Below are positions 3-13,043 of a stretch of DNA of 13,043 nucleotides, piece by piece. The notes below the pieces were generated by a model, which worked only from the letters and a program-made list of their open reading frames with translations, did no database searches and was not told the DNA's origin. The stretch covers positions 1 through 13,043 of the forward strand of contig JANOQV010000122.1 of NCBI GenBank assembly GCA_031414955.1, given 5' to 3'. The stretch is from Pedosphaera sp. Lineage in GTDB: Bacteria; Verrucomicrobiota; Verrucomicrobiia; Limisphaerales; SIBH01. The number at the start of each line of letters is the position of its first letter. Within the stretch, counting starts at the first letter, position 1. The position numbers and the translations under genes were made by a program.

Positions 3-2798
3 TTCACCATGGACCCGGAGTATTCGCGCTGCGTGTCGCGCGTCTTCGTGGACCTCTACAAGAAGGGCCACATCTATCGCGGCAAGCGCATGGTGAACTG
101 GTGCCCGGCCTCGCTCACCGCGCTCTCCGACGAGGAAGTGATCATGAAGGAGCAGAAGGGCTTCATGTATCACTTCAAGGTGGAAGTGGCGGAATCTCCA
201 ACTCGTAGCAGCCGAGGTAACGAGGCTCCAACTTCTTTGGATAAACCTGCTCATGGAGGTGATCAGAGCCTCCTCACGTCGGCTGCTACGAAGAATGAGA
301 AGACTGTCTTCGGCCCGGTCACGGACGCGGAAGGCCGCATCTGGCTCACCATTGCCACGACGCGCCCTGAGACAATTCCCGGCGACACGGCGGTGGCGGT
401 GAATCCGAAAGACCCGCGCTACGCCCATCTCATCGGCAAACACATCGTGCGGCCGCTGCCGGCGGAATTGCCGCGCGAGCAGAAGCTCATCCCCATCGTG
501 GGCGACGAGCATGTGGATTTCGAATTCGGCACTGGCGTGCTGAAGGTCACGCCCGCGCACGACAAGGCGGACTTTGAAATCGGCCAGCGCCATAAACTGC
601 CCGTGGTGGAAGTGATTGAAGCCGACGGCAAGATGAACGCGCTCGCCGGGCAGGACTTGAACGGACTGGACCGCTTTGCCGCGCGCAAGATCGCGGTGGA
701 GAAGCTCAAGGAGCTTGGCTCACTGGAGAAGGAGGAGCCTTACACGAACAACGTCGGCTACAGCGAGCGCGCGGACGTGCCCATCGAGCCGCGGTTGAGT
801 GAGCAGTGGTTCCTGAAGTATCCGAGCGTGGAGAAGTCGCAGCAGTGTGTGACTCAGGAGGAAAAAGAAAGTGCGCCCGGCGGTAAGTCTCTGGAAGCGC
901 CTCTCCGTGGGAAGAAGTTGGCTCACCAGCCTGCACCGAGCGCACTCACTGCGGACGACGTCTCAGCGCGGGTGGCTCACCGTCATGTCGCGGCGGATAT
1001 GCTTATCCCGACAGCGCCGTCGGGACATCCTTTAGCATCAGCGACTGCGAGCGGCAACGATGAGTTGCAGAAGATGAATTTTTATCCGCCGCGCTGGGCG
1101 AAGGTGTACGACCACTGGATGACCGGCATTCAAGACTGGTGCATCAGCCGCCAGCTTTGGTGGGGGCATCGGATTCCGGTGTGGACGCGGCGCGTCAAGG
1201 TGACAAATGAAAACTTCGCTGCCGAGTCACTGAACTTACTCCTTCCAGTAGCGAAGATTCCAACCCAGGAGAACTCACGGCCTGTCGTGCGCATGTTCCG
1301 CGCGGTTGACGGACTCGAAGTCCCTATTGTCTGTGAGGAGAGAACTCTGCTGTTTCCCGAATCAGGAGGTGAGTTCGACGTTTTCATCGCCACAGATGAT
1401 GAGGAACGCGGAAAAGTTTTGGAGAAATTTGGCTTCACCCAAGACCCCGACGTTCTCGACACCTGGTTCAGTTCGTGGCTTTGGCCGTTCGCCACGATGG
1501 GCTGGCCGGAGAACACGGAGGCGTTGAAGAAGTTTTATCCCACCACCGACCTCGTCACCGGGCCGGACATCATCTTCTTCTGGGTCGCGCGCATGATCAT
1601 GGCGGGCTACGAGTGGATGGGCGAGATGCCGTTTCGCAACGTCTATTTCACCGGCATCATCCGCGACAAGCAGGGCCGCAAGATGTCGAAGTCGCTCGGC
1701 AATTCGCCCGACCCGCTCGACCTCATCAACACCTACGGTGCCGATGCGCTCCGCTTCGGCATCATGCGCAGCGCGCCCGCCGGACAGGATCTGCTGTTCG
1801 ACGAACAGTCCGTGGAGTTGGGCCGCAACTTCTGCAACAAACTCTGGAACGCCTGCCGCTTCCGGCAGATGCAGGGCGGCGCGGCGGAAGAGGAAATTCA
1901 AACGTCGTATCTCACCAGCGACGACAAATGGATTCTGCTCAAGCTCGACGCGGCCATCCGCGAAGTGACCATTGCGTTGAACACCTACAAGTTCAACGAG
2001 GCGGCCAACGCGCTCTACCGTTTCTTCTGGAGCGAATGTTGCGACTGGTACGTGGAAGCAACCAAGGCCGTGCTGCAGGCGCCGGACGATCCAGCCAACC
2101 CACGCATCGCCGCGCGCAAGCAGAACACGCTGGCCGTCATGGATTTCGTGCTCTCGCACACGCTTCGTCTGTTTCATCCGTTCCTGCCGTTCATCACCGA
2201 GGAGTTGTGGCAGGGCATGGGCTTCAACGGTGATCTCCCGGCTGGGCAGGGCGGCGACACGATCATGTTCGCCCGCTGGCCGATGCCCTTCGATCAGGAG
2301 ATGAAGGACTTCTATGCGCTCGACGACTGCTACCTCGAACGCGTGGACAACAAATACGAACTCGTGCGCCAGGGCCGCAATCTGCGCAGCGAAGGACGCA
2401 TCGCCCCGAACATCAAACTGCGTTTCGTGCTGAAGCCGGTGAACGATCTCCCGCCACACGACCTCGCGGTGATCAAGATTCTGCTGAACGCCGAGCAGTT
2501 CGAAACCAACGTTGAGTTCACGCCGCCGAAGGGCGCGCTGCGCGCTGCGACGGCATTGGGTGAATTGTTCCTGCCACTAGAAGGCCTGATCGATTTCGCC
2601 GCCGAACGCCTGCGACTAGAAAAGGAACTGGCGAAGATCGCCGCCGAGATCGACACGGTGACGCAGAAGCTCGCCAACCCGAACTTCACCCAGAAGGTTC
2701 CGCCCAAGGTGCTCGCCGATCACCAGCAGCGCCTCGTGGACTGGCAGGCCAAGGCCGCGCAGGTGCGGACGGCGCTGGATGGTTTGGGGGCGGCTTAA
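3..2798 (+). CDS. valS: Valyl-tRNA synthetase (5'-truncated by the window edge), with three lineage-specific insertions
   Basis: The frame is open from the window start (F-T-M-D...). ValRS motifs present: VNWCP, ATTRPET, FGTGVLKVTPAHD, DWCISRQLWWGHRIP, DVLDTWFSS, GRKMSKSLGN, and a C-terminal coiled coil (ERLRLEKEL...KLANPNF). The HIGH motif lies upstream of the window. Confidence 0.98.
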   Translation, partial: FTMDPEYSRCVSRVFVDLYKKGHIYRGKRMVNWCPASLTALSDEEVIMKEQKGFMYHFKVEVAESPTRSSRGNEAPTSLDKPAHGGDQSLLTSAATKNEKTVFGPVTDAEGRIWLTIATTRPETIPGDTAVAVNPKDPRYAHLIGKHIVRPLPAELPREQKLIPIVGDEHVDFEFGTGVLKVTPAHDKADFEIGQRHKLPVVEVIEADGKMNALAGQDLNGLDRFAARKIAVEKLKELGSLEKEEPYTNNVGYSERADVPIEPRLSEQWFLKYPSVEKSQQCVTQEEKESAPGGKSLEAPLRGKKLAHQPAPSALTADDVSARVAHRHVAADMLIPTAPSGHPLASATASGNDELQKMNFYPPRWAKVYDHWMTGIQDWCISRQLWWGHRIPVWTRRVKVTNENFAAESLNLLLPVAKIPTQENSRPVVRMFRAVDGLEVPIVCEERTLLFPESGGEFDVFIATDDEERGKVLEKFGFTQDPDVLDTWFSSWLWPFATMGWPENTEALKKFYPTTDLVTGPDIIFFWVARMIMAGYEWMGEMPFRNVYFTGIIRDKQGRKMSKSLGNSPDPLDLINTYGADALRFGIMRSAPAGQDLLFDEQSVELGRNFCNKLWNACRFRQMQGGAAEEEIQTSYLTSDDKWILLKLDAAIREVTIALNTYKFNEAANALYRFFWSECCDWYVEATKAVLQAPDDPANPRIAARKQNTLAVMDFVLSHTLRLFHPFLPFITEELWQGMGFNGDLPAGQGGDTIMFARWPMPFDQEMKDFYALDDCYLERVDNKYELVRQGRNLRSEGRIAPNIKLRFVLKPVNDLPPHDLAVIKILLNAEQFETNVEFTPPKGALRAATALGELFLPLEGLIDFAAERLRLEKELAKIAAEIDTVTQKLANPNFTQKVPPKVLADHQQRLVDWQAKAAQVRTALDGLGAA
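203..291. repeat. REP-like inverted doublet (REPIN, family A), in-frame inside valS
   Basis: Arm 203-228 (tcgtagcagccgaggtaacgaggctc) vs reverse complement of 266-291 (tcgtagcagccgacgtgaggaggctc): 23/26 identical. Each arm is GTAG followed by a hairpin. Translated as RSSRGNEA...QSLLTSAAT. Confidence 0.9.
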
Positions 2799-6086: not shown

Positions 6087-6183
6087 AGCGGCGCTAAAGC
6101 GACCGCACTCCAAACGCTTTGCGACGGAGAGGGTGCCGGATGCTGCGCGCCAGCGTTTGGAGTGCGGTCGCTTTAGCGCCGCT
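6087..6183. repeat. Intergenic perfect 32-bp inverted repeat (REP-like doublet, family C)
   Basis: 6087-6118 (agcggcgctaaagcgaccgcactccaaacgct) is the exact reverse complement of 6152-6183. Each arm has GGAG-T followed by the hairpin gcgg-t-cgc-ttta-gcg-ccgc. Confidence 0.9.
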
Positions 6184-7580: not shown

Positions 7581-7691
7581 CGGCGCGCGGACATTCCTCT
7601 CCGCAGCAAGCCACTACCACCGCAGGCTTCAGGCGAGTTCGAGACCGTTCGTCGCCACCATATTGCTGTGGACAGGAATGTCCGCGTGCCG
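7581..7691. repeat. Degenerate REP-like inverted doublet (family D) between convergent genes
   Basis: 7581-7609 (cggcgcgcggacattcctctccgcagcaa) vs reverse complement of 7663-7691 (cggcacgcggacattcctgtccacagcaa): 26/29 identical. Consensus hairpin is gcggaca-ttcc-tgtccgc. The foot reads GGCG/GGCA instead of GGAG. Confidence 0.8.
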
Positions 7692-7695
7692 GCTC

Positions 7696-8799
7696 CTATT
7701 CCGGCAAGGCTCGTCCCAGGAAGTGGAGGAAGTTTCCGTGCGAGATGCCTGCAATGTCCTGCTCGCTGTAGCCGCGGGCGCGAAGGAGTTCCGGGACGCG
7801 CGCCAGGTCGGCGACGGTTCGAAGATCCATCGGGGTCTGTTCCGTGCCGAACCCGCCGTCGAGATCCGAGCCGATGCCAGAATGCTTTGCGCTCCCGGCG
7901 ATCTGGCAGACGTGGTCGATGTGCTCGACGAGCTTTTCCAGGGTGAGCCCGACGGCTTGCGGCGTGGTTTGCTGGCGCACCCAGTTCGGCACCATCATCC
8001 ACGCGTCCAAGGCGGCACCAATGACCGCGCCGCGTTGCGTCAAGGCTTTGATCTGTTCATCGCTCAATTGTCGCTGGTGCGGCGCGAGGGCGCGGCAGTC
8101 GGAATGGCTCGCCCAGATCGGACCCTGGTAGAGGTCGAGCGCTTCCCAGAATTCCTCGTCTGTCAGATGCGTGACGTCGAGAATCAGGCCGAGGCGATCC
8201 ATTTCCCGGAGCAGTTCGCGACCCCGTGCGGGAAATTTACCGGTGGCATCGGTGCCTTGGGCATAAAGTCCCGGCCCATAGTGCGCCGGCCCCAGCGCGC
8301 GCAATCCTTGCTCATAGGATTGTTCGAGATGTTTGAAGGAGAGGATGGAATCCGCGCCTTCGAGTGAGAGAATGTAGCCGATGGGTTTCACCACCTCTGG
8401 ACTCGTAGCAGCCGAGGTAACGAGGCTCTGACTTTCTCCAGTCCAAAGGTCCACCTGCCGCTCCAACTCGCCGCGCGTCCTTATCTGCTCCATCTCGCCG
8501 CGGTGTTCCATGGCGCGATACCATGCGAGCTGGCCTTGCGTCTGCGCCCAGGCCTGCTCCGGCGAATGCCAGCCGGGCCGGGGATTGCCACGCTTCACGT
8601 AGCGGGCGATTTGCGTGGCTACGCACACGCCGATGCCGCCGCGTCGCATCTCGGGAAAGCAGACCGTGCCGCGTTCACGATCCGGTTTGTCCGTGAGGTG
8701 CTGTTCCCGTTCATGAATTTCCGCGAGCGGCCGGGTGAAGTCGCGGTTCCACTCCAGCGCGTTCATGGCGAGGTCGAGGTGAGCGTCGAGAATGAGCAT
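7696..8799 (-). CDS. Membrane dipeptidase family (peptidase M19, amidohydrolase fold)
   Basis: MLILDAHLD, SLEGAD, LDVTHL, ASHSDCR and GIGSDLDGG motifs. Start placed at ATG 8799, because the HxD motif is normally at the N-terminus. Confidence 0.93.
   Translation of the reverse strand: MLILDAHLDLAMNALEWNRDFTRPLAEIHEREQHLTDKPDRERGTVCFPEMRRGGIGVCVATQIARYVKRGNPRPGWHSPEQAWAQTQGQLAWYRAMEHRGEMEQIRTRGELERQVDLWTGESQSLVTSAATSPEVVKPIGYILSLEGADSILSFKHLEQSYEQGLRALGPAHYGPGLYAQGTDATGKFPARGRELLREMDRLGLILDVTHLTDEEFWEALDLYQGPIWASHSDCRALAPHQRQLSDEQIKALTQRGAVIGAALDAWMMVPNWVRQQTTPQAVGLTLEKLVEHIDHVCQIAGSAKHSGIGSDLDGGFGTEQTPMDLRTVADLARVPELLRARGYSEQDIAGISHGNFLHFLGRALPE
8401..8431. repeat. Solo family-A REP arm, in-frame inside the dipeptidase gene
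   Basis: 8401-8428 (actcgtagcagccgaggtaacgaggctc) is identical over 28/28 nt to 201-228. On the coding strand it reads QSLVTSAATS. Confidence 0.92.
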
Positions 8800-9901: not shown

Positions 9902-11122
9902 TCACGACCCCAGCTTGCGCAACACCGCGCCCAGTCCGCCTTCCTCCGGTTCGATGTCGATCGGTGCGTCGGGTTGCCCTGCGCTGCCGGTGCTGGCGGG
10001 CCTGGCTGATGGTTCAGTCATTGGTCGCGCGGTTTTGCCCGGGGCTTTTTCCGCGCAGGGCAGGGGAGGAGGTTCGGCGACTTCGCTGTCCGGCGCCTCG
10101 TCGTTGGCATTGGGCTTATGCCACGTCGCGCGTTTCGCCATCCAGGTCTGGTAGCGCGCGAAAGTCCACATGCCTGAGTCCGCTCCCATCTCCATCACCT
10201 GCATGATTTTGAAGAACTCGCGGTTGCGGATGAAGTTCTTCACCGGAATGGTCGGCATCAGAATCTCACACTCGGGGACGCGAATTTCCAAATCAGGCCG
10301 GTAGCGCAGTCGTTGTGTCACCACCGCCACCAGACAATCCGCCAACTGCGCCGCGATCGCGTTCTGGATCTCCGCCGGGAACGCCCCCACCACTCGTTGC
10401 AGCGCCTCGATGCACGAGGAGGAATGCACCGTGGCCAGCACCAGATGGCCGGTCTCCGCGGCGCTCAAGGTCAGCCGCAAGGTGGACGGATCGCGCATCT
10501 CGCCGACCATCAACACGTCGGGATCCTCGCGCAAGGAGTCGAGCAACGCCTGCTCGAAGCTCGGCGTGTCGCGCCCGACTTCGCGCTGGCGCAGAAAGGC
10601 GCGACGCGGCTTGAACACGTATTCGATGGGGCTCTCCAGGGTGATGATGTGCCGCGCCTCGCTCAGGTTCAGCTCCTGAATCAGCGCGGCCATGGTCGAA
10701 GATTTGCCGCAACCCGTCGGTCCGCTCAGGAGAATCAGCCCATGCGGCGAAGTCACGAGCCGCTTCAGGTCGGGATGCAGGTTCAGGTTCTCGATCGTCG
10801 CCTGAAAGGTGCTCAACAACCGGATGGCGAAGCCCACGCCCCGCGAAGTCTGCAGCACATTGATGCGACAGCGCACCCCGGCAATCGTCCGCGACAGGTC
10901 ATGCGAGCGCCGTTCCAGAAATTCATTCCAATGCGCCGTGCCGATCACCTCCCGCGCGAACTCCAGCAGCGTCTTGGCCGGCATCGTTTCGCCCAAGGTG
11001 CGCAGCGCGCCCCGCACCCGCAGCGTCGCGGGCAGGCCCGCTTCGAGATGCAGGTCGCTCGCGCCCTGTTCGCGCGCCACGGCGATGAGAGATTCCAAGG
11101 TCATGCCTCTGGTCACAGCCAT
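9902..11122 (-). CDS. PilT/PilU family type IV pilus-type ATPase with a low-complexity C-terminal tail
   Basis: GASDLHL, Walker A GPTGCGKS, RQREVGRDT, Walker B region LREDPDVLMVGEMRD, His box ETGHLVLATVH. Alternative start ATG at 11104. Confidence 0.92.
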   Translation of the reverse strand: MAVTRGMTLESLIAVAREQGASDLHLEAGLPATLRVRGALRTLGETMPAKTLLEFAREVIGTAHWNEFLERRSHDLSRTIAGVRCRINVLQTSRGVGFAIRLLSTFQATIENLNLHPDLKRLVTSPHGLILLSGPTGCGKSSTMAALIQELNLSEARHIITLESPIEYVFKPRRAFLRQREVGRDTPSFEQALLDSLREDPDVLMVGEMRDPSTLRLTLSAAETGHLVLATVHSSSCIEALQRVVGAFPAEIQNAIAAQLADCLVAVVTQRLRYRPDLEIRVPECEILMPTIPVKNFIRNREFFKIMQVMEMGADSGMWTFARYQTWMAKRATWHKPNANDEAPDSEVAEPPPLPCAEKAPGKTARPMTEPSARPASTGSAGQPDAPIDIEPEEGGLGAVLRKLGS

Positions 11123-11498: not shown

Positions 11499-13043
11499 CT
11501 ACTCGCCGGCCATGGCCGGCTCCGACTTCCGCTCCCAAGCGCGCTTGGGCTTCTCTGGCAGGGTCGTGTCCACGCGGGCGTAATAGGTTTCTTCGCCGAA
11601 CTGGTGGTCGGCGGCCTGCTGGAGTTCCAGCGAGGGCGCGACGAAGTATTTGTCGTGGGTCTCAATGAAAACGATCTCGCCGCCGGGTTGGCGGATGCAG
11701 AGGAAGAGCGGGCATTTGCCGGGGAACCGGCCGACCAGCTCGAGGATGCCGTGCAGCTTCTCTTCGTTGAGGTGGACGGCGTTGAGGCGCAGGTGGACTT
11801 GTTTGGTGAATTTCTTCGGCGCCTCTTCCAGCGGCATCAACTCAGTCGGGAACAATTTCGGCGGACCATCATCGTTGTTTACTTCGCCCACGACGAGGAG
11901 CGCGCGGTTTACTTCGAGGAGCGCGCGGTACTTGTCGTAGTTCTCGTTCATGCAGAGCATGGCGAACGCGCCTTCCAGATCTTCGAGCGTGACCATCGCG
12001 TAGGGCTTGCCGCTCTTCTTCGACATGCCGGCGGTCACGCCGGTGATGATGCCGCCCAGGCGCGTCATGCTGCGGCTGGGGAGCGCGGCGGCGGTCTTGG
12101 AATTCGCCAGGGTGTAACGCTCCAGAATCGGCGCGAAGGGCGTGAGCGGATGGCCGGTGATGTAGAAGCCAAGCAACTCCTTCTCGTTGGAAAGCAGTTC
12201 GCTCTGCGACCATTCCGGCACGCGGAGCAGTCCGTCGTCCTTGGTCTCGGCGCGTTCCTCCAACATGCCGAACATGGACACCTGGCCCCGCGCCCGATCC
12301 GTGGCGGCACTGGACGCGCGGCCCACCACGCGGTCGATGGACGCGAAGAGCGTGGCGCGCGTCTCGCCAAAGCAATCGCAGCCGCCGGATTTAATCAGCG
12401 ACTCAATCGCCTTCTTGTTCACCGCACGCAGATCGACGCGCTCCAGCATGTCGGGAAATGATTTGAAGGGGCCGCCTTCCGTGCGCGCGGCGAGGATGCT
12501 TTCGACGGCCGTTTCACCCACGCCTTTGATCGCGGCGAGACCGAAGCGGATGACGGAGCGCCGAGCATCGCTCGGCTCGGTGGCTTTCCCGTCGCCCGGC
12601 CGAGCAATGCCCGGCGCTCCGCGGCGCGGTGCGGGGGCGAAGAACATCTCGCCTTCGTTCACGTCGGGTTGGAGCACATCGACGCCCATCGAACGCGCCT
12701 CGTTAAGCAGGATGACCAGCTTGTCCGTGCTGCTCAGGTCGTTCGTCATCATGGCGCACAGGAACTCCACCGGGTAGTTCGCCTTCAGATACGCCGTCTG
12801 ATACGCCACGATGGCGTAAGCCGCCGCGTGTGATTTGTTGAAACCGTAGCCGGCAAATTTTTCCAGCAAGTCGAACACTTCGTTCGCCTTCGACTCGGGA
12901 ATGTTGTTCTTCGCCTTGCAGCCTTTGACGAAGTTCACGCGCTGGCTCTGCATCTCCTCGATCTTCTTCTTGCCCATCGCGCGCCGCAGCAAATCCGCCG
13001 CGCCCAGCGTGTAGCCGGCGAGCAACTGCGTGGCCTGCATGAC
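11499..13043 (-). CDS. dnaE: DNA polymerase III alpha subunit (3' half; 5' end outside the window)
   Basis: ADLLRRAMGKK, FAGYGFNKSHAAAY, AYLKANYP, IRFGLAAIKGVG (HhH region), EKELLGFYITGHPL, and an OB-fold (AMVTLEDLEG). Confidence 0.98.
   Translation of the reverse strand, partial: VMQATQLLAGYTLGAADLLRRAMGKKKIEEMQSQRVNFVKGCKAKNNIPESKANEVFDLLEKFAGYGFNKSHAAAYAIVAYQTAYLKANYPVEFLCAMMTNDLSSTDKLVILLNEARSMGVDVLQPDVNEGEMFFAPAPRRGAPGIARPGDGKATEPSDARRSVIRFGLAAIKGVGETAVESILAARTEGGPFKSFPDMLERVDLRAVNKKAIESLIKSGGCDCFGETRATLFASIDRVVGRASSAATDRARGQVSMFGMLEERAETKDDGLLRVPEWSQSELLSNEKELLGFYITGHPLTPFAPILERYTLANSKTAAALPSRSMTRLGGIITGVTAGMSKKSGKPYAMVTLEDLEGAFAMLCMNENYDKYRALLEVNRALLVVGEVNNDDGPPKLFPTELMPLEEAPKKFTKQVHLRLNAVHLNEEKLHGILELVGRFPGKCPLFLCIRQPGGEIVFIETHDKYFVAPSLELQQAADHQFGEETYYARVDTTLPEKPKRAWERKSEPAMAGE
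12554..12621. repeat. REP-like inverted doublet (family E), in-frame inside dnaE
   Basis: 12554-12576 (cggagcgccgagcatcgctcggc) vs reverse complement of 12599-12621 (cggagcgccgggcattgctcggc): 21/23 identical. Each arm is GGAG-C plus a 7-bp stem (gccgagc-atc-gctcggc in the left arm). Translated as RGAPGIARPGDGKATEPSDARRS. Confidence 0.85.

Follow-up and report, generated by a model that had tools for sequence, protein, structure and literature searches.

In-frame GTAG-tagged REP dimer in a loop of a verrucomicrobial valyl-tRNA synthetase and likely exchange of loop alleles between lineages

The valyl-tRNA synthetase gene (valS) of a bacterium belonging to the Verrucomicrobiota almost certainly carries a GTAG-tagged REP dimer that is read in frame within a working gene. 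The DNA analyzed here, which we call the window, is a stretch of 13,043 nucleotides that forms one contig (C122) of a 6.5-Mb assembly with a G+C content of 62%. The named relatives closest to it are Verrucomicrobiota, of which many bear the label Limisphaerales or Pedosphaera. The insert, which is predicted to be translated, is best read as a passenger of near-neutral effect that a tolerant loop accommodates. To the full chain of events that we propose, in which a transposase placed the repeat, the disordered loop tolerates it, its spacer turns over, and the loop alleles move between lineages by way of their conserved flanks, we assign a probability of about 0.65. REP dimers inside genes are already known and are ordinary for this phylum. 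The new part is a hot spot in one turn of valS, which is occupied by several repeat families and whose alleles are likely to be exchanged.

Results and Discussion

The valS gene

The valS frame (positions 3 to 2798, plus strand) is open, matches the ValRS family, and encodes 931 amino acids inside the window. Its 5' part is cut by the contig end; the missing first ~140 residues, including the HIGH-type motif, are located at the end of contig C47, where the valS piece ends and leaves a gap of about seven codons to the window. The genome contains one copy of valS. The editing-domain motifs ATTRPET (354 to 374) and GTG...KVTPAHDKADF (528 to 575) and the catalytic motif KMSKS (1680 to 1694), all on the plus strand, are intact. 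In comparisons with five congeners (G001, G005, G007, G008 and G009), dN/dS is 0.09 to 0.14 for the core of valS and 0.007 to 0.07 for the editing domain (CP1); as judged from these ratios, the gene is under purifying selection. Residues R121, T124, K181, T183, D187 and D190 are invariant among 127 aligned sequences. They align with R216, T219, K270, T272, D276 and D279 of the T. thermophilus enzyme, which we take to form its editing pocket. Intact HIGH-type, editing and KMSKS motifs, a single copy and purifying selection are the marks of a functional ValRS, and the gene appears functional as far as its sequence tells. A non-functional duplicate, which an earlier interpretation made from the letters of the window (the sequence-only reading) had named as the case against itself, was rejected in view of the single copy, the purifying selection and the recovery of the 5' end on C47.

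The gene is a mosaic along its length, and therefore a valS tree is used here as a rough frame only. Directly upstream of the loop discussed below, codons 1 to 62 (window 3 to 188) are 98 to 100% identical in DNA among this genome (G000), G001, G005 and G008, and the rest of valS is mostly 81 to 97% identical. This near-identity may reflect a recent sweep or exchange. A search for known RNA families gave none, only a sub-threshold match to chrB-b at 650 to 696.

A REP dimer at the entry to the editing domain

The dimer occupies positions 203 to 291 (89 bp), has its tags at the outer ends, and is read in frame. Its left arm (203 to 228, plus strand) encodes RSSRGNEA, carries the GTAG tag at 205 to 208, and is of the GTAA-loop subtype. 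Its right arm (266 to 291, minus strand) encodes SLLTSAAT, carries the tag on the minus strand at 289 to 286, and is of the GTGA-loop subtype, such that both REP units have the GTAG tetranucleotide at one end. The spacer between them (229 to 265) is unique in the genome and differs from that of the otherwise near-identical allele of protein P0001. The arms, each of 26 nucleotides and 37 nucleotides apart, are complementary at 23 of 26 positions (88%). Because the three mismatches distinguish two repeat subtypes, with inner hairpins G-GTAA-C and C-GTGA-G, that are both present elsewhere in the genome, they do not represent decay. The 26-bp inverted repeat with its 37-nt spacer was thus correctly located and measured by the sequence-only reading, and its attribution of some 30 residues (RSSRGNEAP...QSLLTSAAT) to the repeat agrees with 89 bp, or about 30 codons. 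As that reading also proposed, the TAG at 206 to 208 falls in a frame that the gene avoids; the third forward frame is likewise open through the dimer.

A strong stem-loop in the mRNA had been suggested, and one is predicted: the RNA from 195 to 300 folds at -50.6 kcal/mol (z -6.6), and 0 of 200 shuffled sequences folded equally well. The inner G-C/C-G swap between the subtypes and the G-A mismatches are visible in the arm sequence. Each arm alone is predicted to form only a 4-bp stem (-2.1 kcal/mol, z about 0), in a calculation that leaves the swap and the G-A mismatches unscored.

The element lies wholly inside the valS frame and is missing from shorter orthologues. The whole variable loop allele, A63 to W114 (189 to 344, plus strand), stands in place of a 7-residue turn of the AEQPGTF type in empty congeners. 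From V62 (of YHFKVEV) to T116 (of TIATTRPET) there are 53 residues, which matches the earlier estimate of about 50 where ValRS usually has a short turn; four empty congeners (G001, G002, G005 and G006) have 8, so that 45 are extra. The T. thermophilus enzyme has a short turn at this position as well. An equal-length loop in all close orthologues, which had been named as counterevidence, was not found: between the anchors of that comparison, empty congeners have 26 residues, and those with other inserts have 46 to 69. Since the site falls within the isolated editing-domain construct 1WKA, about 14 to 17 residues in, its description as the entry to the editing domain is fair. The alignment with 1GAX and the natural length variation suggest a surface loop, and 32 of the 36 residues in the repeat-encoded part are of disorder-promoting types.

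The earlier account of the loop was sound for the repeat-encoded part and left about 16 residues unexplained. These correspond to a non-repeat tail, KNEKTVFGPVTDAEGRIW (291 to 344, plus strand), of about 16 to 18 residues, which is unique in the genome. Its motif, GPxxDxEGRxW, occurs in 70 of 131 sampled ValRS rows and accompanies five repeat classes. Eight of the nine readable congeners lack it, and the closest congeners without it are either empty or have three other repeat classes. The tail and the spacer were considered as parts of the mobile unit, but this was ruled out, as both are unique in the genome.

The repeat family and its distribution among genes

The REP arm has 34 copies in the genome at no more than one mismatch, and a reversed-pattern control has 0. 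A looser search with five mismatches gave 79 hits, versus 31 in a shuffled genome; given this nearness to chance, single units with more than three mismatches were dropped before a census, which comprises 38 elements (22 dimers and 16 singles). With the placement of 20 of the 38 decided by Pfam positions or inspection of open reading frames, and with elements on C11, C46, C124, C125, C133, C184, C249 and C286 left out of the count as terminal or unclear, mid-gene, in-frame positions are held by 11 of the 22 dimers and 4 of the 16 singles. The valS copy is therefore one of about 15 and not a one-off. The hosts are NuoL, two protein kinases, DUF7133, DUF1553 and DUF1592 proteins, an MFS transporter, a P-type ATPase, CHAT-type and Cas1-like proteins (both named by eye from the open reading frame), a debranching enzyme, a dipeptidase of the window, and ValRS. 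In the window's membrane dipeptidase gene, which is on the minus strand, the copy is a single unit (8403 to 8428, plus strand) read in frame. The phase that contains TAG is blocked in 43 of 44 strand readings. The Cas1-like gene (L290:380-1426) has an in-frame dimer of the family that uses the other open phase.

Beyond this genome, the family is present in 24 of 41 genomes searched, with up to 167 copies. The genome with 167 copies, G003, has the same family in its valS loop.

This genome holds 12 Y1_Tnp matches, and several are bordered by other repeats. We sought a cognate RAYT for the valS REP family in two ways, both applied to fragmented assemblies: 0 of 60 Y1_Tnp loci in this family of genomes were flanked by the valS REP, and 0 of 15 regions with clustered copies of the repeat contained a RAYT. 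One copy of the repeat near a Y1_Tnp locus lay past the end of a host gene.

RAYT domains also occur inside genes. In congeners, complete domains with repeat-encoded ends are present in frame in priA (L326, L334 and L335), carB (L315) and alaS (L317), with further in-frame domains inside housekeeping genes at L327, L336 and L337; in relatives, one with repeat ends also lies within a sugar-kinase fusion. The counterparts of these housekeeping genes in this genome have no RAYT. Many public PriA, DinG, RecG and MetH proteins likewise carry a RAYT. Protein P0160 is a ValRS fragment with a RAYT ahead of QDPDTLDTWFSS, in a different loop from that of the REP dimer, and three LeuRS-type proteins (P0167, P0211 and P0261) have one in the editing region. 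No RAYT was found inside the REP-dimer loop of valS among 150 RAYT representatives (by a motif scan of the 60 with at least 450 amino acids), nor among 120 longer RAYT-bearing proteins, for which no PF00133 was listed.

A hot spot for repeats of different classes

An insert is present at the valS loop site in 12 of the 31 relatives, among 40, whose site is readable, including 4 of 9 readable congeners; the loop is empty in the other 19. The site is longer than the empty state in 21 of the best 80 genome loci, 49 of 80 metagenome loci and 102 of 120 proteins, although these sets overstate the share of inserts because they are ranked by likeness to the query. An order-wide search found an insert in 17 of 17 genomes chosen for a split match. 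Three genomes whose single matches were slightly long (G118, G139 and G233) were considered as further carriers and proved to be empty.

The inserts fall into about 11 repeat classes, which were sorted by peptide motif and in some cases relabelled by eye. Together with three tails and an empty state, these classes make up the states of the site. An inverted repeat is present in 70 of 93 distinct inserts, versus 3 of 92 control stretches. The turn of any one relative holds one of the classes or nothing, and the arms are kept as the spacers change. For example, P0001, which derives from another contig and shares 99% identity across the flanking core, has both junctions and the same arms and tail motif as the window allele, and a different, shorter spacer. 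Four other ValRS loops vary likewise, and the valS REP family also occurs in one of them.

Arms that remain near-perfect while spacers change could also mean that the hairpin or the peptide is selected, as a translational pause that aids folding, as a signal for mRNA decay or stability, or as a binding surface. Such a role might explain why 76 of the 93 inserts fold better than shuffled sequences and why the site has been filled repeatedly. However, most relatives do without an insert (19 of 31, and 59 of 80 among the best-ranked genome loci), the peptides of different classes have nothing in common, and the same behaviour is seen in the four other ValRS loops and in unrelated genes. We consider a selected role quite unlikely.

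Other variable regions of the window may be described separately. A second ValRS insert (846 to 1073) brings the distance between anchors to 85 residues, versus 15; its first part matches the sequence that directly follows an LPD3 domain (16 of 27 residues identical to P0021), and the insert has the appearance of a mobile-domain remnant. Whole LPD3-bearing inserts of ~180 amino acids are found in the same or the next loop in G009, G016, G036, G037, G053 and G138 (by eye), and LPD3-bearing ValRS inserts occur also in five proteins by Pfam. A third variable loop (1197 to 1433) has about 65 extra residues and a low GC3 (0.54), is unrelated between congeners, and resembles a loop of P0040. In dnaE, a different repeat dimer (12554 to 12621) is in frame; repeats of its family number about 84 in the genome. 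Three intergenic pairs of inverted repeats (2821 to 2930, 6087 to 6183 and 7581 to 7691) belong to other dispersed families, with 71, 86 and 13 blastn hits, respectively.

Probable exchange of loop alleles between lineages

The distribution of loop alleles was compared with a core tree built from 670 columns of valS without the loops. On this tree, presence of the valS REP family in the loop requires 17 changes for 18 rows, and 17.2 with shuffled labels. Across all repeat classes, 62 changes are needed versus 87 with shuffling, and for the tails 27 versus 50, so that some inheritance of loop family and tail remains. AU tests, run on a 35-row subset picked after a first tree, reject a single clade for the window allele (p 1e-42 for 12 rows and 7e-6 for the 4 nearest). 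Compared with six congeners, 94% of codons are identical over codons 3 to 62, 50% over codons 114 to 123, and 79% over codons 124 to 143, and the corresponding values for 28 long-tail alleles are 62%, 55% and 56%. The DNA on both sides of the loop matches congeners that do not have the window allele. Also, the empty allele (GAA CAG CCC GGC ACG TTC type) cannot be derived from the long allele by deletion. Based on the scatter of alleles, the switch at the flank and an empty allele that is not a deletion product, we infer that a tract of about 180 bp was exchanged by recombination, and loop alleles are likely to have been exchanged between lineages in such short tracts.

The same sequencing runs also contain empty valS alleles. 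The genome contains comEC, and a gene for a PilT-like ATPase is located at 9905 to 11122; the two make uptake of DNA plausible. The importers may have been the congeners, taking up empty or other alleles, and not the lineage of the window. A donor with near-identical tail DNA was not found, and the closest allele in DNA, that of G003, is diverged.

In the scheme that we propose, a RAYT-type HUH transposase would first place such repeats, and a copy would persist only if it preserves the frame and lands in a tolerant loop; the valS repeat would survive because it does both. Homologous recombination between very conserved flanks would have brought the repeat and its tail of 16 to 18 residues, about 180 bp in all, into this lineage, and lineages that occur together would pass alleles to one another in short tracts, with HFKVEV and TIATTRPET as anchors. 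Translating ribosomes would be expected to melt the mRNA hairpin, the peptide would be disordered, and aminoacylation and editing would be little affected.

The same alleles might instead have arisen without lateral exchange, if a resident transposase placed each insert on the spot and an ancestral long tail has been lost on repeated occasions. The family is indeed resident, with its 34 copies here and its abundance in G003, whose loop holds it too, and the differing spacers of near-identical alleles such as P0001 are what fresh insertion, or conversion by a different copy, would give. This explanation is nonetheless unlikely, because deletion within the long allele would not yield the empty one, and because left flank, arms, frame and tail are shared by distant rows. 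Nor does abundance of the family predict the state of the loop: G001, with 44 copies, is empty, and G037 and G050, with 155 and 138 copies, carry class C.

An artificial origin also was considered, in which assembly joined the loop of another organism to this valS at conserved or repeated sequence. A contamination of 5.84% is listed for this genome, consistent with the presence of two pieces each of priA (on C223 and C56) and alaS (on C20 and C94), and a contig break lies within valS. However, contigs from two runs that are possibly the source sample (X1 and X2) cover 264/266 to 406 without differences, at a depth like that of unique parts of valS, in pieces whose list does not extend to the left junction. 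Moreover, P0001 is a separate protein that has both junctions, and the family is found at the loop in 18 of 131 rows, which come from other assemblies as well as this one. A chimera is thus very improbable. As regards expression, run X11, whose RNA type is a guess, gave relatives only, without coverage at 851 to 1050 or 1201 to 1400; runs with small shares were set aside.

Relation to known repeat systems

Di Nocera, De Gregorio and Rocco (2013; PMC3733652) described intragenic GTAG-tagged REP dimers that add 20 to 30 residues in frame to housekeeping genes. In the parts of that report available here, the verrucomicrobium O. terrae has the highest count of intragenic dimers (70 rows), tRNA synthetases are hit in three proteobacteria, and insertion sites differ between species except for recB. 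The valS element shares the tag, the inverted dimer and an in-frame housekeeping host with these elements; their sites differ by species, whereas the single valS turn holds about 11 classes. A term search of four supplements of the report found no "valyl" row, and the 70 O. terrae rows in this material contain no peptides of the valS REP family.

REPINs consist of two conserved inverted REPs and a variable spacer, span about 100 bp, and are dispersed; in the portions of the two preprints available here, they are almost exclusively extragenic, vertically inherited, and accompanied by a cognate RAYT (Bertels and Rainey, bioRxiv 10.1101/2021.07.10.451892 and 10.1101/2024.10.14.618302). The valS family shares the layout of arms and spacer, the dispersed copies and the presence of RAYT genes in the genome with the systems described there. 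In contrast, half of its dimers (11 of 22) are mid-gene and in frame, the allele is scattered with a flank switch over a valS gene tree that is itself a mosaic, and no cognate RAYT was found at 60 Y1_Tnp loci or in 15 clustered regions. The term "full REPIN" applied by the sequence-only reading is apt for the inverted REPs, conserved arms, variable spacer and length of ~100 bp; in the strict sense it would require the cognate RAYT. The valS element is to be filed as an intragenic GTAG REP dimer that probably works like a REPIN and appears to fall outside the strict REPIN-RAYT systems.

Rickettsia palindromic elements are in-frame palindromic repeats in unrelated genes that are predicted to be compatible with the protein fold (reviewed in PMC10969869, of which a portion was available). 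As described there, they are about 150 bp long and encode a conserved peptide, unlike the 89-bp valS element with its variable spacer and GTAG tag.

The loop site invites a further comparison. In homing introns and inteins, some alleles of an essential gene are occupied at a conserved site and others are empty, and a short flank travels along with the insert. By analogy, the valS loop has occupied and empty alleles and a co-travelling flank, but the element has no splicing motifs and no internal nuclease. A possible, though doubtful, extension is that REP dimers in this order of Verrucomicrobia have moved out of the space between genes, with the conserved flanks of essential genes now serving as their vehicle and with RAYT-driven loop alleles homing between families like inteins without splicing. 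A RAYT-type nuclease would nick at or near the hairpin, and repair from neighbours' DNA that the cell has taken up would convert a short tract. The in-frame RAYT cassettes in priA, carB, alaS, leuS and another valS loop would then be the autonomous form of the cycle. RAYTs in frame in genes support both an intragenic life of the system and such homing, without proving either.

No account of this valS hot spot, or of lateral exchange of loops or REPINs, was found in the literature searched, which included few subscription papers and no bioRxiv supplements. The available portions of PMC3184786 and bioRxiv 10.1101/119735 contain nothing on the valS loop site.

Conclusions

The data from the valS loop run against the view of REPINs as extragenic and vertically inherited elements. 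They also show that valS, as a marker in this group, is a mosaic to be used with caution, and they map a loop of ValRS that accepts 20 to 80 extra residues. Since the flanks can be aligned across the order and enclose any of about 11 repeat classes, any of three tails, or an empty turn, the site allows the gain of REPINs, the turnover of their spacers, their replacement and their lateral movement to be measured at one orthologous position.
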